Assembly (NCBI GenBank): GCA_949902595.1
Contig: CATLDC010000007.1
Coordinates: 29,496 to 93,495, forward strand
Source of the DNA: an uncultured Candidatus Melainabacteria bacterium
Lineage (GTDB): Bacteria > Cyanobacteriota > Vampirovibrionia > Gastranaerophilales > Gastranaerophilaceae
Direction of reading: 5' to 3'
Length of the DNA stretch: 64,000 nucleotides
Part shown: positions 14,364 to 46,826 of the stretch, in pieces
How the letters are laid out: the number at the start of each line of letters is the position of its first letter
Position numbering within the stretch: position 1 is the first letter of the stretch
Made by a program: the position numbers and the translations under genes
The notes under the pieces: generated by a model
Seen by the model: the letters and a program-made list of their open reading frames with translations, nothing else
What the model was told of the DNA's origin: nothing
Databases searched by the model: none

Positions 14364-14430
14364 TATAAATATGAGGTACGGAAGCTCAAATATATTACAT
14401 AATTATGTTAAAGGTGTGAATTATTTGATA

Positions 14431-14505
14431 GTTTGAGAAAGGAGCATGAATATCTGGAGTGCTGTTGGGGAGTGTGATTGAGGGGTAAAAAAGAGGTTTG
14501 AGAAA
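14431..14505 (+). repeat. Left-end transposase-binding repeats
   Basis: GTTTGAGAAA at 14431-14440 and 14496-14505, inverse of the right-end TTTCTCAAAC copies. Confidence 0.8.
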
Positions 14506-14627
14506 AAAGTTAAAAAGTATCAAATTAGTATCAATTAATTCCCCCAAAGTAAAAAGGCTGTATGTATGATTATGGTTGTAATACAGGTTTGCCAAGGCTT
14601 GAGGGTTTGGTACTTTTTTGATATTTT

Positions 14628-18497: not shown

Positions 18498-18529
18498 TTA
18501 TTTTTGTAACAGGCGTACAAGCTTGTATT

Positions 18530-25458: not shown

Positions 25459-25570
25459 TTTTACATCATGCGGAGTAGTTCCACTGTCCAGCCCCCGAAC
25501 CTGATTCACCCCTTTTACACCAGGCGGAGTAGATGGACGGTCGGGCCTACAAACCTGATTTACCCCTTTT
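25459..25570 (-). repeat. Interspersed repeat locus 1: two tandem 54-bp A units
   Basis: Minus strand GGGGTAAATCAGGTTTGTAGGCCCGACCGTCCATCTACTCCGCCTGGTGTAAAA then GGGGTGAATCAGGTTCGGGGGCTGGACAGTGGAACTACTCCGCATGATGTAAAA. Confidence 0.9.
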
Positions 25571-25657
25571 GTAAATTTCACTTTGATGGTGACCTGTAAA
25601 TTTTATCCAAGTTAGTATGTTGATATTTTGTCACCCGACCATTTCTCTACGTACGTC

Positions 25658-25717
25658 TTACACTTCACTTTCAAACTTGTAGTCTTACCTACTAATTGGA
25701 AAGTCGGTTGTAAAACC
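25658..25717 (-). repeat. Interspersed repeat locus 2: B hairpin module
   Basis: Minus strand GGTTTTACAACCGACTTTCCAATTAGTAGGTAAGACTACAAGTTTGAAAGTGAAGTGTAA. Confidence 0.85.
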
Positions 25718-25765
25718 CTTATTAATTCCTTATTAATTCGTTTCAATTGCCCCCTTAAATTGTTT

Positions 25766-27316
25766 TCAGGAATAATCCATCCAGCTCGACCTTGCTCCTC
25801 GTAAATCGCCTGTAAACCGCCTTAGATTCAATCCTTGGCTAGAAAGTATATTATTACTGCTTTTTGCGGTGTATACCTCCGGTTTTTGAAAATCTTTTTT
25901 CCCAGAAGAGATATGATTAGCAAGCGCAAGTGCCATACATCGGTCAGCGTGGGCGTCCGAGGTGCCGTCGTCGTCAAATCTTATGTTTCCGGCTTTAGTT
26001 ACGAATTTTTTGACAGAATGATAGTCGTCAATATCAACCTGCGGAGTATCAATATCAATAATGATGTTTCTGTCTTCCACAGCGGAATAGAGCTGATAAA
26101 GTATTTCGCTTTTGCTTGCATTTGTGAACTCAAAAGTTTCAACCTTGCTCAACCCGAAATCAATCTGCGCATCCTCGCCGAGCTGCGCACCAATACCGGT
26201 TGAGTCAACGCAAGCGCGACGGAGGTTCGGGAGTTCTAAGAACTTGTAAAGTATTGCTTTCTGGTCGCGGAACCGCATTTTTTTGAGCTCAATCTTGTGA
26301 CGTAAGAACTTGATATTGTTGACTTTTTCCAGAATAGAAAGTACTGATAAGTGTTTTTTGCGCGCAATATCGTAGCCAAGATACAAGTCCTTGCAACCTT
26401 TAAGCGATTCAAAATCCATAAGAATATTAGGCTCTTTTATTGCATTAAGCATTTCATAAGTAAGAAAAGCGCTAGCCTCATCCACAGCTTCGCAGCAGTA
26501 TTCCTGCCTCCATGTGTAGTCGTCTGCGCAGTCATTGCGTTCGTTTCCCAGCCATTCTTCCCGTTCTTCTTTCGTGGTCGGACGTCCATAAATCTTGTCA
26601 ACAAGCCCCTCTTCAACCGCAAGATGAATTGGCGTAATATGGTGTCCCCAATTAAGTTTACCGTCCCTGCAACGCTTTACAAACTGATAATACAAACAGC
26701 TCTGCCCGTTGTGGGTAGATAAAATACGCAGCGGATAACCCCACGTAATACAAGGTTTTGCAGCTTTCCAAAGCGCGTTCTGGTCTGAATGAAACGCAAA
26801 TTCATCCAATACAACCTTACCGCCTTTTGAACGGAACTGGGTTGGATTGGATGACAAAGCGTTGATTCTGGCGCCGTTTTTGAACTCCAGAGAAAGCGCT
26901 TTGATATCCTTTTTCTCATCAATAACGACCTCTCCGAGGTTCTTGACAGCAGCGTTGAACATCTTTGCCCATTTTTCGCAATACTGGATGTATTCCTTTG
27001 CTGCTGTGATATCAGCAGATGAGAACCACACATCAACAGGCTGGTTGCGGACTTTTAATGTTAATGCATCACGTACATCCTCATAGGACTGGATGTAGGT
27101 TGCACCGATACGGCGGGATTTTTCCCAGATTTTGATACGGGAGTCGTCTTCCAGCCACCGGCACTGATAGGGAAGGAAAAAAGCGGGTGTTTTTTCAACA
27201 GGCGGAGTAGTTCCACTGTCCAGCCTTTTACACTTCACTTCCAAGCCTGTAGTTTTACCTACCGATTGGGAAGTCGGTTGTAAAACTTCATTTACCCCTT
27301 GTTGGACTGCTTCCAT
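25766..27316 (-). CDS. Terminase large subunit (Mu gp28-like)
   Basis: FLPYQCRW, EKSRRIGAT, VVLDEFAF, STHNG, LGYDIARKKH, HADRCMALALA. Confidence 0.92.
   Translation of the reverse strand: MEAVQQGVNEVLQPTSQSVGKTTGLEVKCKRLDSGTTPPVEKTPAFFLPYQCRWLEDDSRIKIWEKSRRIGATYIQSYEDVRDALTLKVRNQPVDVWFSSADITAAKEYIQYCEKWAKMFNAAVKNLGEVVIDEKKDIKALSLEFKNGARINALSSNPTQFRSKGGKVVLDEFAFHSDQNALWKAAKPCITWGYPLRILSTHNGQSCLYYQFVKRCRDGKLNWGHHITPIHLAVEEGLVDKIYGRPTTKEEREEWLGNERNDCADDYTWRQEYCCEAVDEASAFLTYEMLNAIKEPNILMDFESLKGCKDLYLGYDIARKKHLSVLSILEKVNNIKFLRHKIELKKMRFRDQKAILYKFLELPNLRRACVDSTGIGAQLGEDAQIDFGLSKVETFEFTNASKSEILYQLYSAVEDRNIIIDIDTPQVDIDDYHSVKKFVTKAGNIRFDDDGTSDAHADRCMALALANHISSGKKDFQKPEVYTAKSSNNILSSQGLNLRRFTGDLRGARSSWMDYS
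27191..27300 (-). repeat. Interspersed repeat locus 3: A unit with nested B module, in frame in TerL
   Basis: Encodes GVNEVLQPTSQSVGKTTGLEVKCKRLDSGTTPPVEK ahead of TPAFFLPYQ. Confidence 0.9.
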
Positions 27317-27756
27317 TACTCACCTCCGCGTAAAAATTTATCCACAGATAATAAGATATCTGTATCGACATTTTTGTTTTCCTGTAAATCTTCTTCCAGG
27401 TGTTCGGCAATTTCCCGTGCCTCAAAGTTTTTGAGTTTAGGGAGTTTGTCAATCATTTTGGAGATAAAGTTCATTGTTGAACGTTCCGGAATCTCACCGG
27501 TCTCATGGAACTCTTCAATAGCTTTTGCAGTAACTTTGTTCAAAAGTTCATATAAGCCTGTATAGCAGGCATATTGTGAGCCGAGAAACTTTCGGCGTTT
27601 CTCGTCCCAGTTACCTTCTTTTTTCCAGTCGCCGAGGGTTTTGTTGGTTATGTTGAGCGATTTTGCAATCGCAGATACAGGCTTTTGCTCCTCAACATAC
27701 ATCTTCTCGGCAAGGCAGTAGTATTGTTCCTTTTTGCCCATGCTAGCGTTCCCCAA
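27316..27756 (-). CDS. Putative terminase small subunit (DUF1804-like HTH)
   Basis: AEKMYVEEQKPVSAIAKSLNITNKTLGDWKKEGNWDEKR; stop abuts the TerL start. Confidence 0.75.
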   Translation of the reverse strand: MGNASMGKKEQYYCLAEKMYVEEQKPVSAIAKSLNITNKTLGDWKKEGNWDEKRRKFLGSQYACYTGLYELLNKVTAKAIEEFHETGEIPERSTMNFISKMIDKLPKLKNFEAREIAEHLEEDLQENKNVDTDILLSVDKFLRGGE

Positions 27757-28045
27757 GTTCTTTTTTTAGCGTATTAATACGCTTTTGAAGCTCAATTAAT
27801 TTTGTTTTAACGAGCAATAGCTCATCTCCACATTGTTCGATTTTTTCCGCTTCCAGCTCATCAGGGGAAGCAAAATACGGGGAAGCATAGCCTTGAAGTT
27901 CAGTGATAAGGCGCATTGCTTTGAGTTCGCACTCCCGATACTCCTTCTTTGCGCTCTGGAGGTCTATTTGCATTTGCATAATTAACGGATTCATCTTTTG
28001 CAACCTTTCTATATGTTCTCCTTGCCCTTTCTCATATACGGGCAC
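27743..28045 (-). CDS. Phage coiled-coil hypothetical protein
   Basis: 100 aa, overlaps neighbours on both sides. Confidence 0.6.
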   Translation of the reverse strand: MPVYEKGQGEHIERLQKMNPLIMQMQIDLQSAKKEYRECELKAMRLITELQGYASPYFASPDELEAEKIEQCGDELLLVKTKLIELQKRINTLKKELGER

Positions 28046-28254
28046 CAGAGGTTGTTAGTAATTTCTGTGTCGATTTTTTGCAGATAACTCATTTGGAGCG
28101 TATTTTGTTCAATCATTGTTGATAGTAGCTTGAAGGTTTGGCCAATAATCTCGTTCATCTGTTTTGTTGTGGACTGATGATACAGATAAAAAATCAGAAA
28201 TGTCACTCCACTTGAACCTGCAAGTTTTAAAAATTCAATAATTCCATCCGGCAT
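28009..28254 (-). CDS. Small membrane protein, holin-like (BhlA/XhlA type)
   Basis: One N-terminal TM segment (GVTFLIFYLYH) followed by a coiled segment; GAGG RBS. Confidence 0.5.
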   Translation of the reverse strand: MPDGIIEFLKLAGSSGVTFLIFYLYHQSTTKQMNEIIGQTFKLLSTMIEQNTLQMSYLQKIDTEITNNLWCPYMRKGKENI

Positions 28255-28272
28255 AGTTTAACCTCTTTTGTC

Positions 28273-28380
28273 TTTTACAATAGGCGGAGTAGTTGAGATT
28301 GGAGCCTCCAAGCTACATTTACCCACTTTTTCAACAGACGGAGCAGTTTTGACGAAGGTGCTCCCAACGGCATTTACTCC
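28273..28380 (-). repeat. Interspersed repeat locus 4: two divergent tandem A units
   Basis: Minus strand GGAGTAAATGCCGTTGGGAGCACC...ACTGCTCCGTCTGTTGAAAA then GGGTAAATGTAGCTTGGAGGCTCCAATCTCAACTACTCCGCCTATTGTAAAA. Confidence 0.85.
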
Positions 28381-28399
28381 ATCACCTTGTTTACAATCT

Positions 28400-28422
28400 G
28401 TCGGGAAGCTACGCTTCCCGAC
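28400..28422. terminator. Perfect 10-bp GC-rich hairpin in the divergent late intergenic region
   Basis: GTCGGGAAGC-TAC-GCTTCCCGAC. Confidence 0.45.
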
Positions 28423-28578
28423 ATTCTTATATTGATTCTCTTTGCTTGCGTTTTCCAATCACAAATAGTCGGAATTGCGCAGACAACAGGTGTTTTACGC
28501 AAAAATATACTCAAAAATTAGAACCCGTCCGGGAAGCTTGTTATAGTCAGAGTGTCAAGGCGGGATGAAGCAAGCCGG

Positions 28579-28687
28579 AAGGGGTAAATCAGGCTTTACC
28601 ACCGACTTCACAACCGGTATGTAAAACTACAGGCTTGGAAGTGAAGTGTAAAAGGTTTCAAGTCTATCTACTCCACCTATTGTAAAA
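28579..28687 (+). repeat. Interspersed repeat locus 5: A unit with nested B module, ending at the protease RBS
   Basis: AAGGGGTAAATCAGGCTTTACCACCGACTTCACAACCGGTATGTAAAACTACAGGCTTGGAAGTGAAGTGTAAAAGG...CTACTCCACCTATTGTAAAA followed by GGAGG. Confidence 0.9.
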
Positions 28688-28698
28688 GGAGGCAAAAA

Positions 28699-29781
28699 AT
28701 GAAGTGGTGCGAAATATTCAGGACCGGAAAACATACAGATTCTAAAGGCAATAGCCGAGAATGGACAGAGGCTGATTTGCAGCAAATCTGTAATAATTTT
28801 GAATCTAAAAACTCTGATGTACCTATCTGTGTCGGACACCCTAAAACAAACAGCCCTGCTTACGGCTGGATTGAGAGCTTGAAATCTGTTGGCGGAAAAT
28901 TATACGCATCGTTTAAGGATGTACAGCCGGAGTTTCAGGAAGCCGTAAATAAAGGATTGTTCAAGACCCGCTCTATCAGCCTTACTAGAGATTTAGTACC
29001 GCGCCATATTGCTTTTTTAGGCGCACAAGCACCGGCTATTAAAGGGATGGAGCAGTTTTGTTTTGCAGATTGCGAGCCGGATGCTAATGACATCATAATT
29101 AATTTTTCCGAAAGCAAAAATGATAATGATAATGCTGATGAGTCTGCTTTGGCAGACCCCGCAGGGGCAGCGGGAATTTCTGCCCCCCTCGAAAGAGGAG
29201 GAGTTAGCGTTGAGAAAAGTGATGAAATAGGAAGCAGCACCAATATGGGGGGGAAATCAGGTTCGGAGGCTGGAAGTCCATCTACTCCGCATGTTGTAAA
29301 ACTTTCCGCGGCTTCGCCTATAGAAAAAGAAGGAGACGAAATGGACGCAGAATTAAAAAGACAGCTCGCTGCAAAAGATGAAGAGCTTGCAGCAGCTAAG
29401 AAAGAGCTCGAAAAGGTAAGGCAGGAAGCCTTAAAGAAAGAGTTTGAGGAGTTTTGTGACAATGCTATTGAGTCTGGTAATATTTTACCTGCGCATCGTG
29501 ACAATGTTTTAAACCTTTTGTTTGCAAATACCGACACTAATATCAATTTTGATGACGGCAGCTCAAAAAGCTCTAATGAAGTGCTTAAGGAATTTGTCAA
29601 AAGCCTTAGGCAAATGGACTTTCAAAAAATTAGTAATGAAAAAGACGCTCTTTCAGATAAAGAAATTAATTTTTCTGATGCTGAAGAAGTCAAAGAAAGT
29701 ATTCAGGCTTTGCAGAAAGAGTATGAAGACAAAGGTATAGGGCTCAATCCTGCACAGGCGCTTGAAAAATTGAAGGGTTGA
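28699..29781 (+). CDS. Capsid maturation protease/scaffold (Mu gpI-like)
   Basis: EIFRTGKH, VPICVGHP, PAYGWI, KTRSISL, RHIAFLGAQAPAIKGM. Confidence 0.88.
   Translation: MKWCEIFRTGKHTDSKGNSREWTEADLQQICNNFESKNSDVPICVGHPKTNSPAYGWIESLKSVGGKLYASFKDVQPEFQEAVNKGLFKTRSISLTRDLVPRHIAFLGAQAPAIKGMEQFCFADCEPDANDIIINFSESKNDNDNADESALADPAGAAGISAPLERGGVSVEKSDEIGSSTNMGGKSGSEAGSPSTPHVVKLSAASPIEKEGDEMDAELKRQLAAKDEELAAAKKELEKVRQEALKKEFEEFCDNAIESGNILPAHRDNVLNLLFANTDTNINFDDGSSKSSNEVLKEFVKSLRQMDFQKISNEKDALSDKEINFSDAEEVKESIQALQKEYEDKGIGLNPAQALEKLKG
29247..29301 (+). repeat. Interspersed repeat locus 6: A unit in frame in the protease linker
   Basis: GGGGGGGAAATCAGGTTCGGAGGCTGGAAGTCCATCTACTCCGCATGTTGTAAAA, encoding GGKSGSEAGSPSTPHVVK. 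Confidence 0.88.
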
Positions 29782-29816
29782 AAATGTTTAATACTAAAAA
29801 CAGAAAGGTATAAATA

Positions 29817-30197
29817 ATGATTAAAAGTTATCAAGCAGCAGCGGATATAGCCGCTTACAGATTTGTAAAGTTCACAGACGGCGGAATTGCGCCGGCTTCC
29901 GCGGGTACAGATAATATTATCGGCGTATCCGAAGAGGTTAAGAATACAGCCGGATATACGACAGACGTATATATTGCAGGTTCTTTTGCAGAAGTCGAAG
30001 CCGGTGGCGCTTTTTCTGCCGGTGATGCGTTGACCTCTGATGCAGACGGCAAGGCAGTTAAAGCAACTAATACGGACAATGTCGGTGCAATTGCAATGAT
30101 GGCCGCAAACGCCACAGGCGATATCGTGCAGGTTGTAGTTCAGTTGCAGAGAGTAATCGCAACTACAACACCGGCTAAAAATCCGGAAGAGGAGTAA
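29817..30197 (+). CDS. Capsid cement/decoration protein (DUF2190-like)
   Basis: AAADIAAYRFVK, VEAGGAFSAGDALTSDADGKAV, ANATGDIVQV. Confidence 0.8.
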   Translation: MIKSYQAAADIAAYRFVKFTDGGIAPASAGTDNIIGVSEEVKNTAGYTTDVYIAGSFAEVEAGGAFSAGDALTSDADGKAVKATNTDNVGAIAMMAANATGDIVQVVVQLQRVIATTTPAKNPEEE

Positions 30198-30271
30198 ATG
30201 AGGCTTGTAGTTGGAATACAGTAGTTGAATAGTGAATAAATTGAACTTTTCAACTATTCAACTACTCAACT
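30191..30271 (+). repeat. Interspersed repeat locus 7: degenerate A unit with a different inserted hairpin
   Basis: GGAGTAAATGAGGCTTGTAG...TAGTTGAATAG/CTATTCAACTA...CAACTACTC; supplies the stop of the cement gene. Confidence 0.6.
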
Positions 30272-30291
30272 AAATAAAGAAAGGACAAAAA

Positions 30292-31218
30292 ATGCCAAGA
30301 GAAGAACAATTTGAGTTGCAGCCGGAGTTAACCGGAGTTGCACTCGCTTATAGGAACAAAAATTTGATAGCAGACGAAATTTTCCCGACAGTTCCGGTTG
30401 ACCAGAAATCATTCCAGTACAATTTTTATAACAAAGAATCATTCCTGACCGTACCGGAAACCGAAATCGGCGAAAAAGGCTCAGCTAATGAAGCACAGCT
30501 AAAATGCAAGTTATTAACAGAAACCTGCAAAGACTATGCTTTGAAAGAGCGCATTCCAGTACAAAGACAGCAAGAAGCACAGGCAAAAGGAAAAAATATT
30601 GCAGCTGATACAATTATGCATCTCACCGACCTTATGAAATTATCAAGAGAAGTCAGAATTGCAAAAGCGCTGTCTAATAAGACTGTTTACGGCTCCAACT
30701 GCAAAGAGCTTACAGCTTCTGAAAAATTCTTAAATGATGATTACAATGCGTTTAAGGCTATAACTTCTGCAATGGATAAGGTGTTGTTCAGACCTAACGT
30801 TCTTATTACAAGCCGCGCAGGGTTTTCTGCATTAAGCCAGAATCCGTATGTAGTAAGTGCTGTAAACTCTGTTGATGTAAAAGCCGGTGTTGCTTCTGCC
30901 GAAGGTATAAAAAGAACTCTGGGGCTGGACAAGATTCTGGTCGGCGAGGGTATTGTTAATACTGCTGCAAAAGGACAAGCAGCTTCATTCAATTCTTGCT
31001 GGGGCAATGATGTAATCCTTATGCACATCAACCCGATTGCGACAACAGATTACGGTGTAACATTCGGCTACAGGGCAACTCTTGACGATTATACAGTCGG
31101 AAGCTACTTTGACCCTGATGCAGGCACAAAGGGCTGTGATGTTTACAGAATCTTTACAACATATCTTGACCTTATGACCTGCCCTGAATGCGGGTATTTG
31201 TTGAAGGGTGTTGCTTAA
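30292..31218 (+). CDS. Major capsid protein
   Basis: PELTGVALAYRNKNLIADEIFPTVPV, WGNDVILMH, TFGY; follows the protease and cement genes. Confidence 0.85.
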   Translation: MPREEQFELQPELTGVALAYRNKNLIADEIFPTVPVDQKSFQYNFYNKESFLTVPETEIGEKGSANEAQLKCKLLTETCKDYALKERIPVQRQQEAQAKGKNIAADTIMHLTDLMKLSREVRIAKALSNKTVYGSNCKELTASEKFLNDDYNAFKAITSAMDKVLFRPNVLITSRAGFSALSQNPYVVSAVNSVDVKAGVASAEGIKRTLGLDKILVGEGIVNTAAKGQAASFNSCWGNDVILMHINPIATTDYGVTFGYRATLDDYTVGSYFDPDAGTKGCDVYRIFTTYLDLMTCPECGYLLKGVA

Positions 31219-31236
31219 ACAGCATAAGCTCGTGTG

Positions 31237-31296
31237 TTTTACAACCAACTTCCCAACTGGGAGGTAAAACTACAGACCTGGAAGTGAAGTGTAAAA
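31237..31296 (+). repeat. Interspersed repeat locus 8: B module after the capsid stop
   Basis: TTTTACAACCAACTTCCCAACTGGGAGGTAAAACTACAGACCTGGAAGTGAAGTGTAAAA. Confidence 0.88.
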
Positions 31297-31409
31297 CAGC
31301 AGTCACTAAGAAAAGTTTGATTGTGTTGGATTTTCAGTGGGGGGCGTTCTTAATTCCCTTAAGTTCTAAAGCTCTAAGCCCCCCCATTTTTTTAAACAGA
31401 AAGGTAAAT

Positions 31410-31862
31410 ATGTATTGTAAGTTAGCAGATTTAGTCTCAATAATCCCGGAAAGAGAGCTTATCAATCTTACAAACGATAAGCCAGCGGATACTATTAATC
31501 AAGAAACCATAAACACCTGTATGAGTTTTGCTGATGAGCTTATAAACGCGTCATTGAGAAACAAATACAGACTTCCGCTTTCTTTTGCTCCAGATTTAGT
31601 ACGACAGCTTTCTGCTGATATTACGGCTTATAGAGTGTATTCCAGACGTCCTAAGGATGTCCCGGAACACATCAAACAGAATTACGAGTTTGCGCTCAAG
31701 ATTCTTGCAAATATCCAAAAAGGTACAACTGTGCTTGACCTGCCGTCTGAACATCCGGATGAAGAGGGTGTTCAGAGCTCTTCCAGTATGTATATAACAA
31801 ACAAACGTCCGGAAGATAGAAGATTTACAGATGAAATGTTCAGGAGCCACTATGCTGGATAA
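31410..31862 (+). CDS. Head-tail adaptor (Mu gp36/DUF1320)
   Basis: MYCKLADL, ADELINASLRNKYRLPL, IKQNYEFALKILANIQKG; AAGGT RBS. Confidence 0.85.
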   Translation: MYCKLADLVSIIPERELINLTNDKPADTINQETINTCMSFADELINASLRNKYRLPLSFAPDLVRQLSADITAYRVYSRRPKDVPEHIKQNYEFALKILANIQKGTTVLDLPSEHPDEEGVQSSSSMYITNKRPEDRRFTDEMFRSHYAG

Positions 31863-32292
31863 TATCGAAAAAGAATTAATAAAAAATATTGAAGCTATCT
31901 ACCCGAACTTTGATGTAACGAGTTTCCCTCTTGATTTTGAGAGATACGATTTTACGAGTCACGACGGATGTGCGCTTGTAAAATATCAGGGCAGTACATT
32001 CTCTGAACAGAATACAGTCTGGGAAGTTTCCCAAGATGAGACTTATGAATATAAAATTCTTCTTGGGTTGAGATATTTGCGTTCGTTCAAGGATGCAAAC
32101 CCTGTAATCAGTAATCTCAAAAAAATTCTCCAGGGACTTTTAATTGTGAATCACAAGGTAACGCTTAAGATGATTAAGTTTGAAGGGGTTGATAACGGTG
32201 ATTTGTGGTTTTCAATAACAATAAATTTGAAGTTAGTAATGCGCAGCACAGCGCAAAGTTATGAAGGGAGTGCCAATGCAATACCAGTATAA
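31852..32292 (+). CDS. Mu gp37-like neck/tail terminator protein
   Basis: Position after gp36; ALVKYQGSTFS; GGAG RBS. Confidence 0.65.
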   Translation: MLDNIEKELIKNIEAIYPNFDVTSFPLDFERYDFTSHDGCALVKYQGSTFSEQNTVWEVSQDETYEYKILLGLRYLRSFKDANPVISNLKKILQGLLIVNHKVTLKMIKFEGVDNGDLWFSITINLKLVMRSTAQSYEGSANAIPV

Positions 32293-32476
32293 AGGTCCGT
32301 TCTCTATCGAGGATGGCGAGAAGCCAGATACCTATCAACAATGGTTTAACGCAAAAATCTATGATGAAAAAGAAATTGTTGTTTCTTCAAAAAGGTTGAA
32401 AACATTGATTAATCTGGGGTATTTGAAGCCGATTGAGAATAAAAATACTATAGTGAAAGGCAGGGTGCAAAAATGA
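32276..32476 (+). CDS. Small phage protein preceding the sheath
   Basis: GGGAG RBS; ends LINLGYLKP-like, as seen in small pre-sheath proteins; overlaps the sheath start. Confidence 0.5.
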   Translation: MQYQYKGPFSIEDGEKPDTYQQWFNAKIYDEKEIVVSSKRLKTLINLGYLKPIENKNTIVKGRVQK

Positions 32477-33906
32477 CAGATTATTTACACGGTGTAGAGA
32501 CAAAACGCGAGGAGCAGCCAGCTTCCATACAGGACGCCACAACTTCTATTAACGCAATGGTTGTCTCTGTACCAACATTTTTACTTAAAGAAGAGTATCA
32601 GACTCTTAATAAACCCGTTCCAATCCGTGGTTATAGCGATATTACAAAATATGCCGGCAAAAATGTGGCAGGATTCACCGGGTATGATTCTTTGTATACA
32701 GCTATGACAGAATCAGAAGGCGCAATCATTTATATGATAAATGTCTTTGACAAAGATAAGCATAAAACATCCAAAACCATCGATACTGCTCATCTTACGG
32801 CTGGTAAATACACTATTGAAGAGCTAGGCGTTACAAATCTTGTTGTAGGAGACGGGGTTTTGGATACAGACTATACCTTTGAAGACGGTGTTATCACCGT
32901 CATCAAAGATGGCAAATTTAAAGATGCTGCGTCGGTAACAATAACCTACGATTACGCAGATATCACAAAATTGACTACAGCCGACTTTATTGGTACAATA
33001 GACGAAGATAATATAAAAACAGGGTTGCAAGCAGTATATGATATTCAGGCGCTTTATGGCGATGAAATATCTATACTTACAGTTCCGACTTATTCAGCAC
33101 TTAAGGCTGTACGCTCAGCTATGGAATCAATTGAGAGTAAGCTTAAGCTCCAGTCATATTATGACTGTCCGGTCGGAACATCTATCAATGCAGCAATTCA
33201 AGGTAGGCAGGGGGGAAATGGGACTGTTGACGCTTCAGTTGATTTGACTTCATCATCTGAAAACGGTATGTTCTGTTTTCCGTATGTTTACAGATATAAC
33301 GCAGAAACGGATAAAGACGAACTCAGACCGCCTTCTCCTGCCGTAGCAGGTATGAGGGTTCGGCTTGACAGAGAAAGAAATGTTGCAAAATCTATTGATA
33401 ACACGAAATCTCTGACAACAAACGGCACCGAGTTCCCGATAGGGTTCAGGCTTAATGACCCGACTTCTGAAAGCAATGCGCTCAATGCCAAAGGTATTTC
33501 AACTTTTATTAATTATAAGGGAAGCTACTATTTCTGGGGAGGACGCAACGCTAAATTCCCGACTGTGGATAATATTGAGACTTTTGAAAATGTTCAACGA
33601 ACTGCTTCATATATTGAACGTTCTATTCAAAATTCTTCATTCCAATGTGTGGGTGAAACTATCACTCAGGGGTTTATTGATGATGTTTTAAATATGATTG
33701 AAAGCTTCTTTAATAGACTAAAAAATCCACAGAATCAGATTATTATAGATGGGAATGTAATATATGACCCGTCACAGAATCCGGCAGAAGAACTTGCAAA
33801 GGGACATATAAGGTTTTCTTATAAATTCTGTCCTCCGCCTCCGGTTGAAAGGCTGACGTACTACTCGTTTATTGATATTCAGTTGTTGAATAGTCTCGGG
33901 GGGTAA
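32473..33906 (+). CDS. Contractile tail sheath protein
   Basis: YLHGVET, TGLQA, PPSPAVAG, LNAKGISTFI, YFWGGRN, YKFCPPPPVERLT. Confidence 0.9.
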   Translation: MTDYLHGVETKREEQPASIQDATTSINAMVVSVPTFLLKEEYQTLNKPVPIRGYSDITKYAGKNVAGFTGYDSLYTAMTESEGAIIYMINVFDKDKHKTSKTIDTAHLTAGKYTIEELGVTNLVVGDGVLDTDYTFEDGVITVIKDGKFKDAASVTITYDYADITKLTTADFIGTIDEDNIKTGLQAVYDIQALYGDEISILTVPTYSALKAVRSAMESIESKLKLQSYYDCPVGTSINAAIQGRQGGNGTVDASVDLTSSSENGMFCFPYVYRYNAETDKDELRPPSPAVAGMRVRLDRERNVAKSIDNTKSLTTNGTEFPIGFRLNDPTSESNALNAKGISTFINYKGSYYFWGGRNAKFPTVDNIETFENVQRTASYIERSIQNSSFQCVGETITQGFIDDVLNMIESFFNRLKNPQNQIIIDGNVIYDPSQNPAEELAKGHIRFSYKFCPPPPVERLTYYSFIDIQLLNSLGG

Positions 33907-34027
33907 ATCAGGTTTGGAGGCTGGATGTCCAACTACTCCGCCTGTTGTAAAAGTGGGGTAAATCAGGTTTTACAACCGACTTCCTAACTAATAGGTAAAC
34001 CTATAAATTTGGAAGTGAAATGTAAAA
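33898..34027 (+). repeat. Interspersed repeat locus 9: A unit followed by A-start plus B module; supplies the sheath stop
   Basis: GGGGGGTAAATCAGGTTTGGAGGCTGGATGTCCAACTACTCCGCCTGTTGTAAAAGTGGGGTAAATCAGGTTTTACAACCGACTTCC...TTGGAAGTGAAATGTAAAA. Confidence 0.92.
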
Positions 34028-34044
34028 AAAGAAAGGTTATAACA

Positions 34045-34560
34045 ATGACTACAGTAATTACAGATGGAACACTATACTTAGGCAGAAACTTATTCGGTAC
34101 TGTTACAAACATCAAAGCGCCGGAGATTGAGCCTAACACATTAGAAATAAAGACCCTCGGGTCTGTCGGGACTTACTCGCTCTCTATGACTTCAGTTAAG
34201 GAGCTTAAGAGTTCAGCAACTCTTACAGGGTATGATATGAAGGTTTTTAAGCAGATTGCAGACCCGACAAAAGAACTCACTATGACTATTTATGCGGAAA
34301 TCAAGGAATATGACGGCGCGGCTTTGACCTCTCAAAAATCTCTGAAGATAAAAATGCGTGGCACATGTTCAAAATTTCAACTTCTCGGGGAGATGAAGGC
34401 GCAAGAAAATATAGAATTCCCGATGGAGTTCAATAATACTGCGGTAAAGAAAACTGTTGACGGCAAAGATATCTATGAAATTGATATTCCGAACTATATC
34501 TATAAAGTCAATGGAGTAGATTTGCTCGCAAAGACCAAGAAAAATTTAGGGTTAGCATAA
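34045..34560 (+). CDS. Tail tube protein (P2 FII-like)
   Basis: Follows the sheath; C-terminal IYEIDIPNYIYKVNGVDLLAKTKKNLGL. Confidence 0.85.
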   Translation: MTTVITDGTLYLGRNLFGTVTNIKAPEIEPNTLEIKTLGSVGTYSLSMTSVKELKSSATLTGYDMKVFKQIADPTKELTMTIYAEIKEYDGAALTSQKSLKIKMRGTCSKFQLLGEMKAQENIEFPMEFNNTAVKKTVDGKDIYEIDIPNYIYKVNGVDLLAKTKKNLGLA

Positions 34561-34581
34561 GGTAATGGAAAGGAATTAAAA

Positions 34582-34992
34582 ATGGAAAATACAAACAATT
34601 TAACATCTTTTACATCAGGCGGAGACGGATTGCCATCAAGTTTAACTCCACCTTTTGCTCCGTTATTTGATACGGATAACGCAATTACAAAGCTTGACGA
34701 ATACAAAGAAGTAAGACTCGAAAAGAAATCTGATATCGTTGAATTTACACTTCCATCCGGCAAAAAAGTTGAGATGGATTTGTCTAGGTTCAAAATCAGA
34801 ACGATTATGAACGCAAGAGCCTGTGCTCAAGGCGGATTCAAGACCACTCTTTACATACTTGCAGATATCTGTAAATTTAACGGACAGACTGTTACAGTAC
34901 CGGAAATGGACGAATGGGACGGTTACGACCTTTTGGCTCTTGAAGAGGAATGGGATAAAGCTCGTAATAATATCCCAAAGCACCAAGTATAG
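34582..34992 (+). CDS. Tail assembly chaperone (short form); -1 frameshift extends it to 35123
   Basis: Between tube and tape measure; C CCA AAG slippery site at 34974-34980; -1 frame reads SIADVVFFAHFTGWSKAEIYDMSFDEY. Confidence 0.8.
   Translation: MENTNNLTSFTSGGDGLPSSLTPPFAPLFDTDNAITKLDEYKEVRLEKKSDIVEFTLPSGKKVEMDLSRFKIRTIMNARACAQGGFKTTLYILADICKFNGQTVTVPEMDEWDGYDLLALEEEWDKARNNIPKHQV
34608..34656 (-). repeat. Interspersed repeat locus 10: variant A unit, antisense and in frame in the chaperone
   Basis: Minus strand GGTGGAG...AATCCGTCTCCGCCTGATGTAAAA; shares AATCCGTCTCCGC with locus 12. Confidence 0.7.
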
Positions 34993-35112
34993 CTGATGTT
35001 GTATTCTTTGCCCATTTCACCGGCTGGAGCAAGGCAGAAATCTACGATATGAGCTTTGATGAGTATAACGCCCTCCAGGACGGAATGTTGGAAATTATAA
35101 GAGAACTCAAAG

Positions 35113-37173
35113 ATGGCAGATAATCTTACTTTAAAACTTGTATTGAAAGCCAATGACGGCATGAGCGGAGTAGTCCGCCAAGCCGTCCGTGCTTCTGATG
35201 CAGATTTTGAAAAGCTCCAACGCAGCCTGAAGGATACCGCAGCCGGGTTTGAAGATTTCGGGAAAAAAGCAGGTATTGCAGGAGGTGCACTTACTGCGGC
35301 CTCTGGACTTAATGCTAAGCTTGCCGGAGACTTTGAAGAAGGGATGAATAATGTTTCAACGCTCATTGACACAAATGTTGAGTCTCTTGGTGATATGTCA
35401 AAAGCTATTCTTAGTATTGGAAAGGATTCTCCGAAAGCAATCAGCGATTTAACAGAAGGCCTATATTCTATACGTTCAGCAGGGATTGACGCTTCTGAAC
35501 AGTTCAATGTTTTACGCGGTTCTGAAAAACTTGCAGTCGCAGGACTTGCAACGACTGCCGAGGCCGTTGACATTTCAACATCTGCAATCAACGCTTTTCG
35601 GCTCAAGGGCGAAAAATCAGCCAAAATGTACGATATGCTTTTCAAAGTCGTAAAATACGGTAAAACCAATATTTCAGAATTTGCGCAGGGTTTTGGCTCT
35701 GTTGCCGGAGTTGTGGCATCCGCTGATATCAAGCTTGATGAGTACTCTGCTGCTGTCGCTGCAATGACCACAACCGGCGTAAAAGCCAACATTGCTCATA
35801 CCCAGATGAAAGCTGTTATTGCAGGCTTGTCCCGTGCTACCGATGACCAGGTAAAAATCTTCAACAAACTCGGCGCAAAATCTTTCAAAGACCTGATTCA
35901 GAAATCTGGAGGTTTGGTCAACGCTCTAGACAAAATTAAGACAGCTGTAGGCGGAGATGAGGCTAAAATCATTTCGCTTGTAGGTTCTGTTGAGGCCTAT
36001 AACGCAGTTATGTCACTTACTGGTGCAACAAACAAAGTCTATCTTCAGACTCTTGATGATATGAGAAATGGCGCAGACTCATTGAGCGAAGCTTATCAAA
36101 AGCAGGTATCAGGATTTAATAATCAGATGAAAATTTTAGGCAACCAATTCCAGGTACTTGGAATCAAGTTTGGTACAGGTTTGCTCCCTGTCTTAAAAAG
36201 TGCAGGAAATGTACTTAAAGGTGTTCTTGCTTTTCTCGACAGAATGCCTGAAGGGCTTACAAATGTTTTATCTATTACAGTTGCTGGTACTGGTGCTGCA
36301 TTGCTTGGTTTAAGCGGGATGTCATTTGCTATATCAGGTGCAATAAACGGATTTAACAACATGCTCTGGTTAATAAGGCAAGCAGACATTTTGATGTGGG
36401 GGTTTTCAGGGAGAATAAGTGTCGGTTTAGCAGGCATGCAAGCCGGGCTCCTTAAATTAATTCCAGCTATCCAGAAAATGGGTATTGTTATGAAAGGATT
36501 TAATCTTATATGTGCTGCAAATCCTCTTGGGCTTGTTATTGCACTCATTGGAGCTGCGGCCTTTACCGTTATGAAGTTCTGGAAACCTATAACCGGATTC
36601 TTTCGCGGGTTCTTTACGGGTTTACGAGAAGGTCTGGCTCCTATCACTCCAGCTTTTAAGCAAATTGCAGCTGCTGTTAAGCCTGTATTTGATTGGGTTA
36701 AAAAGCTTCTAAGCCCTATTAATAGTGCAGGGAAAGCTAGCGAAGATTTCGGGCATAAACTAGGAAAAGCAATTGGTGATGGAATTACTTGGTGCACTAA
36801 ATTAATCGGAAAGCTATGGGAGGTTGTTACTCTTGGCGGGCGTATTAAATTTGGCAATAAGAACGATGTATCAGGTTTTGTCAATGGCTCGCATGCTCAA
36901 GGTTTGGCGCGGGTTCCGTTTGATGGGTATATTGCAGAGACACATAAGGATGAATCAATTTTAAGTGCTCCGGAGGCGCGGGAATGGCGGAATTACAAGG
37001 CTGGTGGAAACGGCTCCCAGCCGATTGTGCTTAATTACAGCCCTAAGATTGAGGGCGGTGCGGGGCTTGACGAAGCTAAAATGCTTGCGATTCTCAAATC
37101 CAATGCACAAGAATTGGTACGGATACTTGAGGGTGTCTTAAGACGAAGAGAGGCCAGGTCTTATGGCTATTAA
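35113..37173 (+). CDS. Tail tape measure protein (TP901-like core)
   Basis: FEEGMNNVSTL, ISDLTEGLYSIRSAG, VVKYGKTNISEF, ANPLGLVIA; ends GSHAQGLARVPFDGYIAETHKDE. Confidence 0.9.
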   Translation: MADNLTLKLVLKANDGMSGVVRQAVRASDADFEKLQRSLKDTAAGFEDFGKKAGIAGGALTAASGLNAKLAGDFEEGMNNVSTLIDTNVESLGDMSKAILSIGKDSPKAISDLTEGLYSIRSAGIDASEQFNVLRGSEKLAVAGLATTAEAVDISTSAINAFRLKGEKSAKMYDMLFKVVKYGKTNISEFAQGFGSVAGVVASADIKLDEYSAAVAAMTTTGVKANIAHTQMKAVIAGLSRATDDQVKIFNKLGAKSFKDLIQKSGGLVNALDKIKTAVGGDEAKIISLVGSVEAYNAVMSLTGATNKVYLQTLDDMRNGADSLSEAYQKQVSGFNNQMKILGNQFQVLGIKFGTGLLPVLKSAGNVLKGVLAFLDRMPEGLTNVLSITVAGTGAALLGLSGMSFAISGAINGFNNMLWLIRQADILMWGFSGRISVGLAGMQAGLLKLIPAIQKMGIVMKGFNLICAANPLGLVIALIGAAAFTVMKFWKPITGFFRGFFTGLREGLAPITPAFKQIAAAVKPVFDWVKKLLSPINSAGKASEDFGHKLGKAIGDGITWCTKLIGKLWEVVTLGGRIKFGNKNDVSGFVNGSHAQGLARVPFDGYIAETHKDESILSAPEAREWRNYKAGGNGSQPIVLNYSPKIEGGAGLDEAKMLAILKSNAQELVRILEGVLRRREARSYGY

Positions 37174-37933
37174 TTTACAAACAATTTTTGATAGAACCGA
37201 AAGTTTGGATTTTTTTAAAGAAGTCAATTATACTCATCAGCAGGGTATAATAGGCAAAGCTTCTCTTGCAGCAGGGGCGGAAAACCTTAAAACTTATCCG
37301 CTTACAGTTAAACTTCATCATTCTTTCTGCAACCCGCAGGAAGTTATTGATGAAATCGAGTCAAGAATTGCTGGAAAAGAGATTCTTGACTACTTTCAGG
37401 GCTCGGTTTATATCGGAAAATATGTTCTTCAGCACCTTAACGTTGAAGTTTTAGAACAGATTGACGGGCATATAACAGCCTGTATCATCAATCTTGAGCT
37501 TCTGGAATCCGGCGAAAAAGAAGAAAGCTTTGTACAGCAGGTTGCTGATACCACGGCAGAAGGGCTCGAAAGTGTTAATAACACTATCTCCGGCAGGGCA
37601 AAAACTTTTCTTGCTTCATCCAATCCTGTTGTAAATTTTGTCAAAAAACAGGCAGAGAATATCAAAAACCAGATGTTTGACGCGGCGCTTGATATTCTTG
37701 AAAACGGCGATATTGAAGCGTTGCCGGAAATTGGAAAATTGACAGTCCGTGATATTGCTCGGAGCATTGTTTCTGATATCGAGAACCAGGGAATAACAAG
37801 TGTAGTAAGTATTACAGAAAAATATACATTAGAGGTGAATGTTCCTGGCTTAAGCCCGGAAGAATCTGAGCGGTTGGTCGATGCGCTCAAAGAGATTCCG
37901 AGGAAGATAATGGATAGTGCTCTGAGGGGGTAA
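37163..37933 (+). CDS. Phage tail protein (P2 gpU-like N-terminus with extension)
   Basis: Follows the tape measure; LTVKLHHSFCNP, YIGKYVL, INLELLE. Confidence 0.65.
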   Translation: MAINLQTIFDRTESLDFFKEVNYTHQQGIIGKASLAAGAENLKTYPLTVKLHHSFCNPQEVIDEIESRIAGKEILDYFQGSVYIGKYVLQHLNVEVLEQIDGHITACIINLELLESGEKEESFVQQVADTTAEGLESVNNTISGRAKTFLASSNPVVNFVKKQAENIKNQMFDAALDILENGDIEALPEIGKLTVRDIARSIVSDIENQGITSVVSITEKYTLEVNVPGLSPEESERLVDALKEIPRKIMDSALRG

Positions 37934-38042
37934 ATAAGGCTTGTAGGTTAGACAGTGGAACGACTCCGTCTATTGTGAAAGGGGTAAATTAGGTTTGGAG
38001 GCTTCAAGTCCGACTACTCCGCCTGATGTGAAAGGGGGTAAT
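37926..38042 (+). repeat. Interspersed repeat locus 11: two tandem A units flanked by GGGGGTAA
   Basis: GGGGGTAAATAAGGCTTGTAGGTTAGACAGTGGAACGACTCCGTCTATTGTGAAA GGGGTAAATTAGGTTTGGAGGCTTCAAGTCCGACTACTCCGCCTGATGTGAAA GGGGGTAAT then ATG. Confidence 0.92.
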
Positions 38043-38258
38043 ATGGCAGGCAGTTATAAATTCTACAAAACCCAGACCGGCGACCGGTGGGACAAGATTG
38101 CTTATAAGTTCTATGGTGATGTGTTCAAGCAGCAGCCGATTATTGAAGCTAATTCAGATGTAGCAATAACACCAATATTACCTGCCGGTATTACGCTTAT
38201 GATTCCTATACTGGAAAATGGTGCAGATAAAGGAGGTTTACCTGTATGGAAGCAGTAA
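38043..38258 (+). CDS. Tail protein X (LysM-like)
   Basis: YKTQTGDRWDKIAYKFYG...IIEANS...LPAGITLMIP...LPVWKQ. Confidence 0.85.
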   Translation: MAGSYKFYKTQTGDRWDKIAYKFYGDVFKQQPIIEANSDVAITPILPAGITLMIPILENGADKGGLPVWKQ

Positions 38259-39235
38259 TCTACAAACCAAACGTATTTCTTACTTATAACGGTCATGATG
38301 TCACAGAAGATTTTAGTCCGTATCTATTGGATGTTACTTATACTGATTTCGAAAAAGACCAGTCTGATGAACTCGACATCCGGCTAAAAGACAATGATGG
38401 CAAATTCAGAGATACATGGTCTCCGCGTAAAGGGGATAAGCTTGCCTGTACTTTATTTCCACAAAACGGTGGAACTTTAGAATGCGGAGCATTTACTATT
38501 GACGAAGTTGAGTATTCTGGCGACGAATCCGGTGACATCTGCACGATGCGTGCTCTGGCTGCAACAATAAACAAATCCGTAAGAACCCGCTTCACTCGCG
38601 GATATTCCGGTAAAACCCTTGTTGATATCGCCCGCGAAATCGGTGCACGTCACGGATTTGAAGTCATTGGAAATGCGGGATTTGTATATGTCGACACCAT
38701 TACTCAAGCAGGTGAAACCGACCTTTCTTTTCTGAACAGGGTTGCTTCAATGTACGGCTATACATTCAAGATAACTGATAACAAGCTTACTTTTATGCCG
38801 GTGGAAAATCTAGAAAACTCCGATATACTATTAACTTTTAATAAATCGAATATTAAAAGCTATTCTTTTACAGATACATCAACAAAAATGTACGGAGCCT
38901 GCACAGCTTCTTATTATGACCCAAAGACAAAGAAGCTCAAGAACTATACGGCAAGAAATACGAATAGTCTTTCAAAAGACACATTAAAGCTTTCTAATAA
39001 GTATATTTCATTAGACGCTGCAAAACGTGCGGCCAATATCGGACTCAAAAACGGCTCAACAGAGGTCACAGGCGCAATAACACTGAAAGAAAGTAATAGT
39101 AATTTTATTGCTGGGGTAAATGTGGAGTTTGTTGACGATTTTGGTGTTTATAACGGCAGATATCATATCACTCAAACTACGCACATAGTGTCTTGCGGGG
39201 TGTATGAAGTATCAGGAGAAATAAAGAAATGTTAG
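38246..39235 (+). CDS. Baseplate hub / late control gpD-like protein
   Basis: DQSDELDIRL, GAFTIDEVEYSG, TQAGETDLSFLNRVA, YHITQTTH. Confidence 0.85.
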   Translation: MEAVIYKPNVFLTYNGHDVTEDFSPYLLDVTYTDFEKDQSDELDIRLKDNDGKFRDTWSPRKGDKLACTLFPQNGGTLECGAFTIDEVEYSGDESGDICTMRALAATINKSVRTRFTRGYSGKTLVDIAREIGARHGFEVIGNAGFVYVDTITQAGETDLSFLNRVASMYGYTFKITDNKLTFMPVENLENSDILLTFNKSNIKSYSFTDTSTKMYGACTASYYDPKTKKLKNYTARNTNSLSKDTLKLSNKYISLDAAKRAANIGLKNGSTEVTGAITLKESNSNFIAGVNVEFVDDFGVYNGRYHITQTTHIVSCGVYEVSGEIKKC

Positions 39236-39747
39236 TATTTGGTAATGTTATAGCTATTGATGAAGCAAAAGCCAGAGTTCGGCTTAAACTTCCGGACATG
39301 GATGATTACGAGACTCCGGGTTGGATTTTTGTTCCGCAGGCTTGCACTGTCGGGGATAAATCTTATAACCTTCCGGCAATTAATACGCTTGTCGCAGCAG
39401 TTATGGACAGTGAAATGCAGGACGGATGCCTTCTCGGAGCCCTCTATAACGACGAAGATGTCTGTATCCTGGGCGATAAAAATGTTAAGTACATCAAATT
39501 TGAGGACGGGGCTTATTTTAAATACGACAAAACAACCGGATTCTTTGAAGGCAAAGCACCTAATAAAATCTATATGGAAGCACCTGTAATTGAGCTTAAA
39601 GGTGATGTTGTAAATACCGGGAACTTTTCTTCAACAGGTCAGGTTTCTGACAACAAATCTTCAATGCAGGCTATGAGAGATGTTTATAACTCTCATACTC
39701 ATACTTGTCCGGATGGAACGACAAGCACAGCAATGGGGCAAATGTAG
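39229..39747 (+). CDS. Baseplate spike (gpV)
   Basis: ARVRLKLPD, YNLPAIN, GCLLGALYN; C-terminal iron-binding HTH residues YNSHTHT. Confidence 0.88.
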   Translation: MLVFGNVIAIDEAKARVRLKLPDMDDYETPGWIFVPQACTVGDKSYNLPAINTLVAAVMDSEMQDGCLLGALYNDEDVCILGDKNVKYIKFEDGAYFKYDKTTGFFEGKAPNKIYMEAPVIELKGDVVNTGNFSSTGQVSDNKSSMQAMRDVYNSHTHTCPDGTTSTAMGQM

Positions 39748-39800
39748 CTGGTAGGATTGACGTTAATCCGTCTCCGCTTATTGTGAAAGGGCAAATGTAG
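39735..39800 (+). repeat. Interspersed repeat locus 12: variant A unit flanked by a 12-bp direct repeat
   Basis: GGGCAAATGTAG at 39736-39747 and 39789-39800; core GTAG followed by palindrome GGATTGACGTTAATCC. Confidence 0.85.
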
Positions 39801-46646: not shown

Positions 46647-46777
46647 TTTCTCAAACCTCGTAACAAATTTTCTCAAACTCCTAGCAAAGTCGGTAAAAAT
46701 AGGGTTAAGTCCTTGCAGGATAAAGGATTGAGTTAAAATTTAAAATTTCTCAAACTCCTAGCAAACTTTTCTCAAAC
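46647..46777 (-). repeat. Right-end transposase-binding repeats
   Basis: TTTCTCAAAC at 46647, 46669, 46746 and 46768 (two pairs, each 22 bp apart). Confidence 0.88.
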
Positions 46778-46826
46778 CTCGAGGCACGTTACAAAAGGCT
46801 CAAACCCTTTGATAGCTATGCTTTTC

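Follow-up and report, generated by a model that had tools for sequence, protein, structure and literature searches.

Short mosaic repeats at gene junctions of a Mu-like prophage from a Gastranaerophilales bacterium

Repeat units among the late genes of the prophage

The 64,000-nucleotide stretch of an uncultured Candidatus Melainabacteria bacterium analyzed here (contig CATLDC010000007.1, positions 29,496 to 93,495; referred to as the window) carries a transposable Mu-like phage with a P2-type tail, whose late genes are interspersed with two families of short repeats, units A and B. The early genes encode MuA, a MuB-like ATPase, Gam, GemA and an S24 repressor, the head genes encode Mu F, a Mu-type portal, TerL, a protease/scaffold, a cement protein and the capsid, and the tail genes encode the sheath, the tube, the tape measure, gpU-, gpX- and gpD-like proteins and the baseplate. 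Unit A (~54 nt) was searched with a sequence-only covariance model of 35 copies with filters off (R1), and unit B (a ~65-nt hairpin) with a structured covariance model (R2). Between 25.4 and 39.8 kb, R1 finds nine full A units, two that are split by a B unit, two heads alone and one antisense 18-nt fragment, and R2 finds five B units with scores of ~80–91 bits. Together they occupy 12 loci, which bears out an earlier note on this DNA that had counted about 14 A units at 10 loci and five B units. As that note had also stated, 11 of the 12 loci are co-oriented with the genes and change strand at the divergent region near 28.4 kb (binomial p = 0.006). A repeat finder recovers both families on both strands, and the two halves of the unit A consensus match only within 25.4–38.1 kb of the window, with no match expected from shuffled sequences. 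Rfam at gathering thresholds gave no match in the window, and megablast of 25.4–40 kb against GenBank phages gave none either.

Unit A resembles a translationally coupled gene junction at its 5′ end, (A)GGGGGTAAAT(G), which contains a Shine-Dalgarno (SD) sequence, a stop and often a start codon, and it closes in a new SD at its 3′ end, CTACTCCGCCTGTTGWAAAAGG(GG). The ends are direct and not inverted (GGGGGTAAA... / ...GTAAAAGGGG), and units stand singly or in head-to-tail arrays. Four genes (cement, sheath, gpU-like and 172-aa baseplate) have their stop codon in a unit head of the form GGGG(T/C)AAAT(GTAG), and the 3′ ends of units reach into the ribosome-binding site (RBS) of seven genes (those for the portal, the 81-aa protein, the protease, the capsid, the tube, tail X and the gpW-like protein); the earlier note had described the same supply of stops and abutting of RBSs.

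Three loci are tandem pairs of unit A. On the minus strand, units at 25459–25510 and 25511–25568 (R1, 35.8 and 54.8 bits) lie directly upstream of the RBS and start codon of the portal gene (ATG 25443); beyond them, sequence comparison delimits a minus-strand spacer module of ~82 nt with a hairpin of its own, GGGTGAC...GTCACC (25569–25650), which separates the array from a minus-strand B unit downstream of the TerL stop (25651–25719; R2, 89.7 bits). This B unit is a three-segment hairpin with an RNA minimum free energy (MFE) z of −4.2 relative to shuffled sequences. The second pair, at 28272–28325 and 28326–28380 (minus; R1, 50.9 and 37.7 bits), belongs to the minus-strand flank of the divergent region, upstream of the 81-aa gene (ATG 28254), and the third, at 37925–37982 and 37983–38035 (plus; R1), fills the gap between the gpU-like stop (TAA 37931–37933) and tail X (ATG 38043) and is flanked by the direct repeat AGGGGGTAA. 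A further plus-strand unit A (39734–39790; R1, 23.7 bits) separates the 172-aa baseplate gene from the gpW-like gene.

Other loci combine A with further modules. At 28579–28689 (plus) an A-head, a B unit and an A-tail form a composite (A, 28579–28596 and 28652–28689; B, 28590–28658) whose final AAAGGAGG is the RBS for the protease/scaffold (ATG 28699). The sheath-to-tube locus at 33899–34032 (plus; R1, R2) consists of a full A unit (33899–33953), which supplies the sheath stop (TAA 33904–33906), followed by an A-head (33955–33970), a B unit (33964–34032) and the tube RBS. At 30191–30290 (plus; partial R1 match) the A-head GGAGTAAATGAGGCTTGTAG (30191–30213) supplies the cement-gene stop and leads into a different, 14-bp hairpin module (MFE z = −4.1) and the capsid RBS. 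The remaining B unit stands by itself at 31233–31301 (plus; R2, 80.8 bits), after the capsid stop (31218) and upstream of a terminator-like hairpin (~31345–31400).

Two loci lie within coding sequence. One is a minus-strand composite of a 13-nt A-head, B and an A-tail at 27191–27300 (A, 27191–27228 and 27283–27300; B, 27221–27289), in frame in the TerL N-terminus (GVNEVLQPTSQSVGKTTGLEVKCKRLDSGTTPPVEK); the other is a plus-strand unit A at 29248–29301 (R1, 48.5 bits) in the linker of the protease-scaffold protein, where TAA has become GAA and the unit encodes GKSGSEAGSPSTPHVVK. Only a single reading frame of unit A is open (…GKSG.EAGSP.TPP.VK…), and it is the one used by these two copies and by a third in the gpD gene of the related phage L078; units can therefore also persist in frame in tolerant protein linkers. 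Unit A was also considered as a protein-coding repeat, a reading that was rejected, as the substitutions are not codon-like and two of the three frames contain stops. A reading as a clustered regularly interspaced short palindromic repeat (CRISPR)-like array, with a 30-nt junction-spanning repeat and 24-nt "spacers", was discarded too, the middles being near identical within one array.

The two units differ in structure. Unit B is an imperfect palindrome, found alone or in a fixed slot within A, whose fold stacks three helices: TTTTACA/TGTAAAA, ACTTCC/GGAAGT and, innermost, GTAG/CTAC. B units and the 30191–30290 module form stable hairpins (MFE z of −2.7 to −4.2), and across eight B copies 89% of the cells are paired, as against 27–50% with slid partners, with three compensatory pairs. 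The ends of B are inverted (TTTTACA/TGTAAAA), and no target-site duplication could be defined for it. Unit A, in contrast, folds no better than its shuffled versions (z of −1.2 to +0.9), and a consensus fold of 11 copies (RNAalifold) contains one invariant GGGGUA/UACUCC helix with no compensatory pair. Its variable cores of 24–25 nt have a weak family-wide hairpin tendency (mean z −0.65), with the phage cores near zero (z of −0.5 to +1.0). The description of the whole set as hairpin repeats thus holds for B and is not convincing for A. The GGAG/CTCC or GTAG/CTAC pairing that the earlier note saw in the variable middles is not covariation, because the invariant CTACTCC can pair with either.

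Seen within this one phage, the repeats could be an RNA signal, used phage-wide or domesticated, that tunes virion stoichiometry through processing, mRNA stability or translational coupling. The sense orientation at 11 of 12 loci, its switch at the divergent region, the span of units from stop codon to next RBS and the paired, stable hairpins of B and of the 30191–30290 module are all in keeping with such a role; the absence of covariation or of a fold better than shuffled in unit A is not. Nor is a coupled mini-open reading frame (mini-ORF) relay a conserved requirement. TAA is followed by ATG in 17 of 35 A copies, giving a mini-ORF of 18 or 13 codons that, in 54-nt units, opens at TAA-ATG and runs for 18 codons to the TAA of the next unit, but the phage copies mostly have ATC, ATA or ATT at the start position.

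Empty sites and turnover in related phages

Relatives of the phage were recovered through their sheath homologues, by protein search and contig look-ups; a search of IMG/VR with the sheath protein found no relative. The most distant of three, L047, is 67% identical in the sheath; its genes stand in the same order, without a single unit. L043 (87%) and L045 (81%) have fewer units than the window, partly at other places. Between the sheath and tube genes all three have an empty coupled junction, a tight GGAGGAGGTAACTAAAATATG in L043 and L045 and GGAGGTAACGAATAATG in L047 (…GGAGGTAAC…ATG). The composite at 28579–28689 is not present at that position in any of the three, and in place of the 30191–30290 modules they have other or no sequence. 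The array at 28272–28380 is absent from L045 and L047, and so is that at 37925–38035, where both have a unit-free coupled junction. In protein alignments the TerL composite at 27191–27300 is an insertion relative to L045, and the unit at 29248–29301 is an 18-aa insertion in the protease that is absent from L043 and L045.

A much closer relative, L078, reveals current instability. L078 and the window share ~98% nucleotide identity over 21 kb, yet they have at least nine repeat-linked differences. The three tandem arrays (at 25459, 28272 and 37925) each differ by exactly one 54-nt unit, all three being single units in L078. At the 172-aa-to-gpW junction L078 has an exact empty site, GGGGCAAATGTAG followed by ATG, whereas the window has a 53-nt insert (39748–39800) whose last 12 nt (39789–39800) repeat GGGCAAATGTAG of 39736–39747 as a target duplication. 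The TerL N-terminus of L078 contains a plain unit A; in the window, 60 nt of B replace TTTGGA, for a net gain of 54 nt with the frame kept. Conversely, the gpD gene of L078 has its in-frame A unit where the window has none, and an extra A-like element follows TerS. Given these sites, empty in one phage and filled in another, and the copy-number polymorphism among related phages, the units are insertions with rapid gain and loss in this clade of Mu-like phages.

The insertions start at (A)AGGGG(G)TAA-like sequences, in which an SD overlaps a stop codon and which resemble the head of unit A itself. Filled sites of this kind are found at the end of the L043 protease gene and at the ends of the gpU-like, sheath and gpV-like genes. 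The target duplications, of 9 and 12 nt, match the unit head. Because the target is duplicated, the upstream gene retains its stop and the downstream gene its SD.

These data bear heavily on the RNA-signal explanation. L047 manages the same genes in the same order without a unit, phages that are ~98% identical differ at nine or more repeat loci, and units interrupt the coding sequence of TerL, the protease and gpD in frame. Within a single spacer, different units are found at different positions: between the capsid and gp36 genes the window has B before the terminator-like hairpin, a partial B (L043) or an A (L045) follows the hairpin in two relatives, and L047 has the terminator alone. A conserved cis-regulatory RNA is hard to reconcile with occupancy that varies among L043, L045, L047, L078 and the window, with an A unit without covariation and with the lack of an Rfam match. 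At the TerL-to-portal junction the window has two A units besides B and the spacer module, L043 has B and one A, L045 a remnant and L047 nothing; the spacer module is retained in L045 with a compensatory change (GGCTGAC/GTCAGCC) and absent in L043. That this junction and the capsid-to-gp36 spacer are occupied in several relatives speaks for some function and weighs against neutrality; they could be permissive sites, or the units there could bring some benefit. On balance we regard a phage-wide RNA signal, which the earlier note had offered as one of two explanations, as improbable.

Two further observations concern rearrangement in the relatives. An identical GC-rich hairpin module of 39 nt, TTCGGCAGACCGTGTTGCGGAAGCAACACCCGCTGCCGCG, follows CTACTCC in two A units of L078 (6778–6820 and 11468–11505), one in the protease gene (+13 aa) and one between sheath and tube, and the orthologous units of the window are without it; its identity in the two copies points to gene conversion between them. 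In L043 (12384–13701) the tape-measure and tail X genes are missing and a B unit and an A-tail fragment stand in their place, which may be a repeat-mediated deletion that left a defective prophage.

Distribution in the host genome and across the genus

The earlier note had called the repeats prophage-restricted, and had allowed that an equal density throughout the genome would mark them as an ordinary host repeat. In the 2.10-Mb genome to which the window belongs, 11 of 14 R1 matches fall in 14.3 kb, or 0.7% of the DNA (P ~ 5e−22), and all five B copies lie within the prophage, so that density is far from equal and the restriction holds, in this genome, for most copies. It does not hold strictly, since two tandem A units are found in a second phage-like, integrase-bearing element (contig C8, 47625–47737), between a DnaB-like helicase gene and rusA, and one in host DNA adjoining an ABC-F gene (contig C13, 40457–40513). 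In the C8 element, which encodes an integrase, a DnaB-like helicase and RusA (C8, 47560–47780; L009, 9604–10977), the helicase ORF reads through both A units and gains ~45 aa. A decayed A-like relic, GGGGTAAATAGGGTTTGGACAGTCAAACCTCACTATTAAAAAG, was also noted on contig C6 (112307–112397, at 112340), at a junction orthologous to one with a full unit in another genome of the genus, G065; this suggests that the A family may once have been chromosomal in this lineage and has since eroded.

Outside this genome the restriction to prophages fails. Among the 98 genomes of the genus that were searched with the model, 56 carry unit A; copies number 0–67 per genome and are spread over many contigs, the richest genome being G065 with 67. 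The exact 20-mer CTACTCCGCCTGTTGWAAAA occurs at 15 loci in public genomes, of which 14 are in Gastranaerophilales, Cyanobacteria bacterium or rumen metagenome-assembled genomes (MAGs) and one is a partial match in a Balneolales MAG; a scan of IMG/VR with it returned only one unrelated partial match. Host units occupy the gap from rplS to a GTPase gene, a site upstream of gltX, and sites that follow pdxJ, coaBC and coaX. Arrays of two to five units with a period of 54–55 nt are frequent, and the gene downstream of such an array takes its start codon (ATG) from the last partial unit, GGGGGTAAATG. The presence of units in housekeeping operons is a further point against a signal that serves the virion. 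The A-rich genomes G065, G088, G042 and G087 contain no homologue of the sheath of this phage, so their A copies are chromosomal and not carried by this phage type. Of the host arrays between two genes of the same direction, 11 are co-oriented and four opposite (eight and one in G065).

We conclude that the units are probably MIRU-like (mycobacterial interspersed repetitive unit-like), mosaic, selfish or near-neutral repeat families native to Gastranaerophilales, rather than a conserved phage RNA signal. Of the second explanation in the earlier note, a REP-like (repetitive extragenic palindromic) element that colonized the late operons and was domesticated there, the dispersed chromosomal repeat and the insertion polymorphism support colonization, and domestication as an RNA signal is improbable.

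Several observations, besides the two junctions occupied in more than one relative, sit less well with this conclusion. The density in the phage, ~0.84 A units/kb, is ~20 times that of the richest host genome (0.037/kb) and ~1700 times that of its own host chromosome, which exceeds the obvious prediction of passive colonization and leaves room for phage-linked amplification or selection. The host orientation counts are small (11/15, p = 0.12) and the underlying ORF calls heuristic. In hosts the B-like hairpin forms part of a ~300-bp element with terminal inverted repeats (TIRs), and a short stand-alone B (~80–90 bits) is so far found only in this phage clade and in a related prophage in G107. 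Finally, no mobilizing enzyme or mechanism was identified, and the copying model set out below derives from the end structures.

The ~300-bp element was seen in B-rich hosts (L050–L057; genomes G076, G010, G014, G009, G013, G075, G057 and G078), where a B-like hairpin of 52–69 bits forms its center. Its TIRs of ~20 bp (CACTACTGTCCGAGATAA.../...TTATCTCGGACAGTAGTG) enclose a further pair of inverted repeats, GTTATTAAAAGGCTGGATT/AATCCAGCTTTTTATTAAC, and it includes another hairpin besides (AATGACGCC...CGTCATT); from its sequence it appears to be a classical MITE-type element (MITE, miniature inverted-repeat transposable element) that has one module in common with the phage repeat.

The same density figures underlie a different explanation, which makes the phage the units' main habitat and amplifier. 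Copying would then be driven by some phage-linked process, such as replicative transposition (~100 copies in each cell), the recombination functions of the phage or the packaging of host DNA, and the phage would seed host chromosomes on its way from species to species. In its favor, A-rich host genomes are without B-like matches and B-rich ones without A, and the phage carries both; the stand-alone B is confined as described; turnover between near-identical phages is fast; and two of the other A copies of the host genome are in a second phage-like element. We consider it unlikely that this is the main route, as the A-rich genomes are without the sheath homologue, no candidate phage enzyme was identified, and a published survey rates phages as poor vectors of host MITEs (PMC11602168). 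Nevertheless, A density, the co-occurrence of A and B and the stand-alone B leave some small room for phages as the main amplifier and vehicle. The prophage ends (window 14400–14560 and 46650–46800) contain several copies of (A/G)GTTTGAGAAA, plausibly MuA-binding repeats, and the host flagellin gene begins at 46881, directly beyond the right end. Local alignment scores of these repeats against A and B are within the range of shuffled sequences, which again counts against the amplifier explanation, and a mini-Mu-like element mobilized by MuA was rejected as a candidate, the prophage-end repeats being unrelated to A or B.

Mobilization as classical REPs was weighed as well. REPs are short, stable, imperfect palindromes with a conserved GTAG head, and are mobilized by a REP-associated tyrosine transposase (RAYT), a Y1 (HUH) enzyme whose gene is typically flanked by the REPs it mobilizes. 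Unit B forms a stable palindrome around a GTAG-loop-CTAC core, the tail of unit A contains CTAC, genes for a ~180-aa Y1_Tnp protein (RAYT-like or IS200-like) occur in 58 of 98 genomes of the genus, with up to nine each, and seven of nine genomes rich in B-like hairpins have one. However, no Y1_Tnp (PF01797) was found in the host genome, which is 99.8% complete, or in G065 with its 67 A copies; the presence of Y1 is not associated with copy number (Fisher p = 0.43 for A and 0.30 for B); and four Y1 loci in the genus have no flanking A or B units. Unit A is not a stable palindrome, and head-to-tail arrays that grow in 54-nt steps are unlike the doublets of REPs and REPINs (REP doublets forming hairpins). 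The link between GTAG and RAYT that the earlier note had drawn therefore finds no support, and RAYT-mobilized REPs are a highly implausible origin for these units.

Proposed mode of spread and comparison with known repeats

We propose that selfish or near-neutral units of this kind would spread without a dedicated transposase, by homology- or microhomology-guided copying (template switching, gene conversion) and by slippage along arrays. Cut-and-paste by a transposase accounts less well than slippage, template switching or gene conversion for the end structures, the whole-unit steps and the common 39-nt module. As the target motif is polar, it alone predicts a bias to the sense strand, and the observed bias could arise from this polarity together with selection against polar insertions. 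The repeats can pile up in the prophage because each copy recreates the stop and RBS of the junction; their density in the late operons may thus reflect many permissive coupled junctions and a "stealth" design rather than a function that the phage needs. Single B hairpins may incidentally affect mRNA stability.

A bolder version would make unit A an active, self-propagating "junction cassette" that is copied through microhomology, without a transposase, into junctions with an SD and a stop and regenerates the junction each time, with Mu-like phages as its main amplifier and as its vehicle between Gastranaerophilales species. We think this rather doubtful; if true, the load of A and B modules in a phage would record its past host lineages.

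Among described repeats, MIRUs are the closest parallel to unit A. They are direct repeats of 40–100 bp, single or in tandem, that lie in the intercistronic gaps of operons in the orientation of transcription, with ends overlapping stop and start codons, and they have both empty and filled sites between relatives and vary in copy number by whole units (PMC12548453, PMC3184786). Insertion is at start codons with a coupled ORF, with consequences for expression that are believed to be minimal (PMC12548453); the ORFs of MIRUs overlap the adjoining genes, and in-frame insertions of repeats are known (PMC3184786). Unit A is likewise 54 nt long, occurs in arrays of one to five, has a stop in its head and an SD in its tail, and is co-oriented with the genes at 11 of 12 loci in the window, in 11 of 15 host arrays and in eight of nine in G065. 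It shares the exact empty site and the whole 54-nt steps (L078 and window). The TAA-ATG of 17 of 35 copies, and the placing of the upstream stop in the head at four window loci and in host arrays, may recall the relay of coupled cistrons reported for MIRUs (PMC12548453, PMC3184786). The sequences are unrelated, however, and the bearers differ, AT-rich Melainabacteria here as opposed to GC-rich mycobacteria. The mini-ORF of unit A is not conserved (ATC, ATA or ATT in phage copies), and its family is heavily represented in a phage and combines with other modules.

The mosaic arrangement has its parallels in the Neisseria intergenic mosaic elements (NIMEs), in which RS units are flanked by dRS3 repeats (PMC1797815), in the bacterial interspersed mosaic elements (BIMEs) of E. 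coli and in the BOX elements of pneumococcus, all of which are short intergenic modules in variable order and number. Here B, the hairpin of 30191–30290 and the 39-nt module occupy fixed slots of A. The modules and sequences are different ones, unit A bears translation signals, and no binding proteins or integrase targets are known for it.

MITEs of the TIR type are recognized by terminal inverted repeats and a short target-site duplication of fixed length. Unit A fails on both counts, its ends being direct and its duplications, of 9 and 12 nt, matching its own head. Genus-specific host repeats that recur in the phages of that genus, denser per kb there than in cells, have been described as vMITEs (viral MITEs), with up to 30 in one Neisseria phage sequence (Nadal-Molero et al. 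2024, PMC11602168). Unit A differs from these too, having no TIRs and duplicating a motif like its own head, and the phage has ~1.2 units/kb over 14 kb with its own host chromosome almost free of copies. Rickettsia palindromic elements (RPEs), palindromes of ~105–146 bp, insert peptides in frame (PMC3184786), as do the A copies in the TerL N-terminus, the protease linker and the gpD of L078; the RPE palindrome is longer, and coding copies are a minority here, most units being intergenic.

The units thus constitute a dispersed repeat family not described before from Gastranaerophilales, uncultured gut bacteria that have been little studied, and an unusually clean example of small repeats that saturate tightly packed phage operons without breaking them. 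In sequence the family is unrelated to the known repeats compared above. They do not point to a new regulatory mechanism. As near-identical phages differ by many whole-unit insertions or deletions, the units could serve as strain markers for phages in the manner of variable-number tandem repeats, and they could link uncultured phages to hosts, as has been proposed for MITEs.

Two further matches to unit A concern a fragment and a degenerate copy. An A-tail fragment of 18 nt lies antisense in a tail-chaperone-like ORF (34607–34624, minus; R1, 13.9 bits, E = 0.0035) and may be a chance match or a relic. In the early region, where the earlier note had found no full copy, there is indeed no full unit, but a degenerate A-like unit (GGAGTAAATGAAGCTT...CGCCTGTTACAAAAATAA; R1, 11.1 bits, E = 0.027, a weak match) lies at the junction between the MuA transposase and MuB genes of the early operon (18502–18553, minus), and the MuA stop falls in the loop of its hairpin.

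The repeats also mislead annotation: starts are miscalled and ORFs come out too long, for example in the portal, adaptor, tail X and DnaB-like genes. After the capsid gene, the terminator-like structure at 31340–31400, a G/C-rich hairpin with T7 behind it, keeps its position in L043, L045 and L047, and a gp36-like ORF call (31188–31862) overlaps unit B; the likely start of this gene is the ATG near 31413, after AAAGG.

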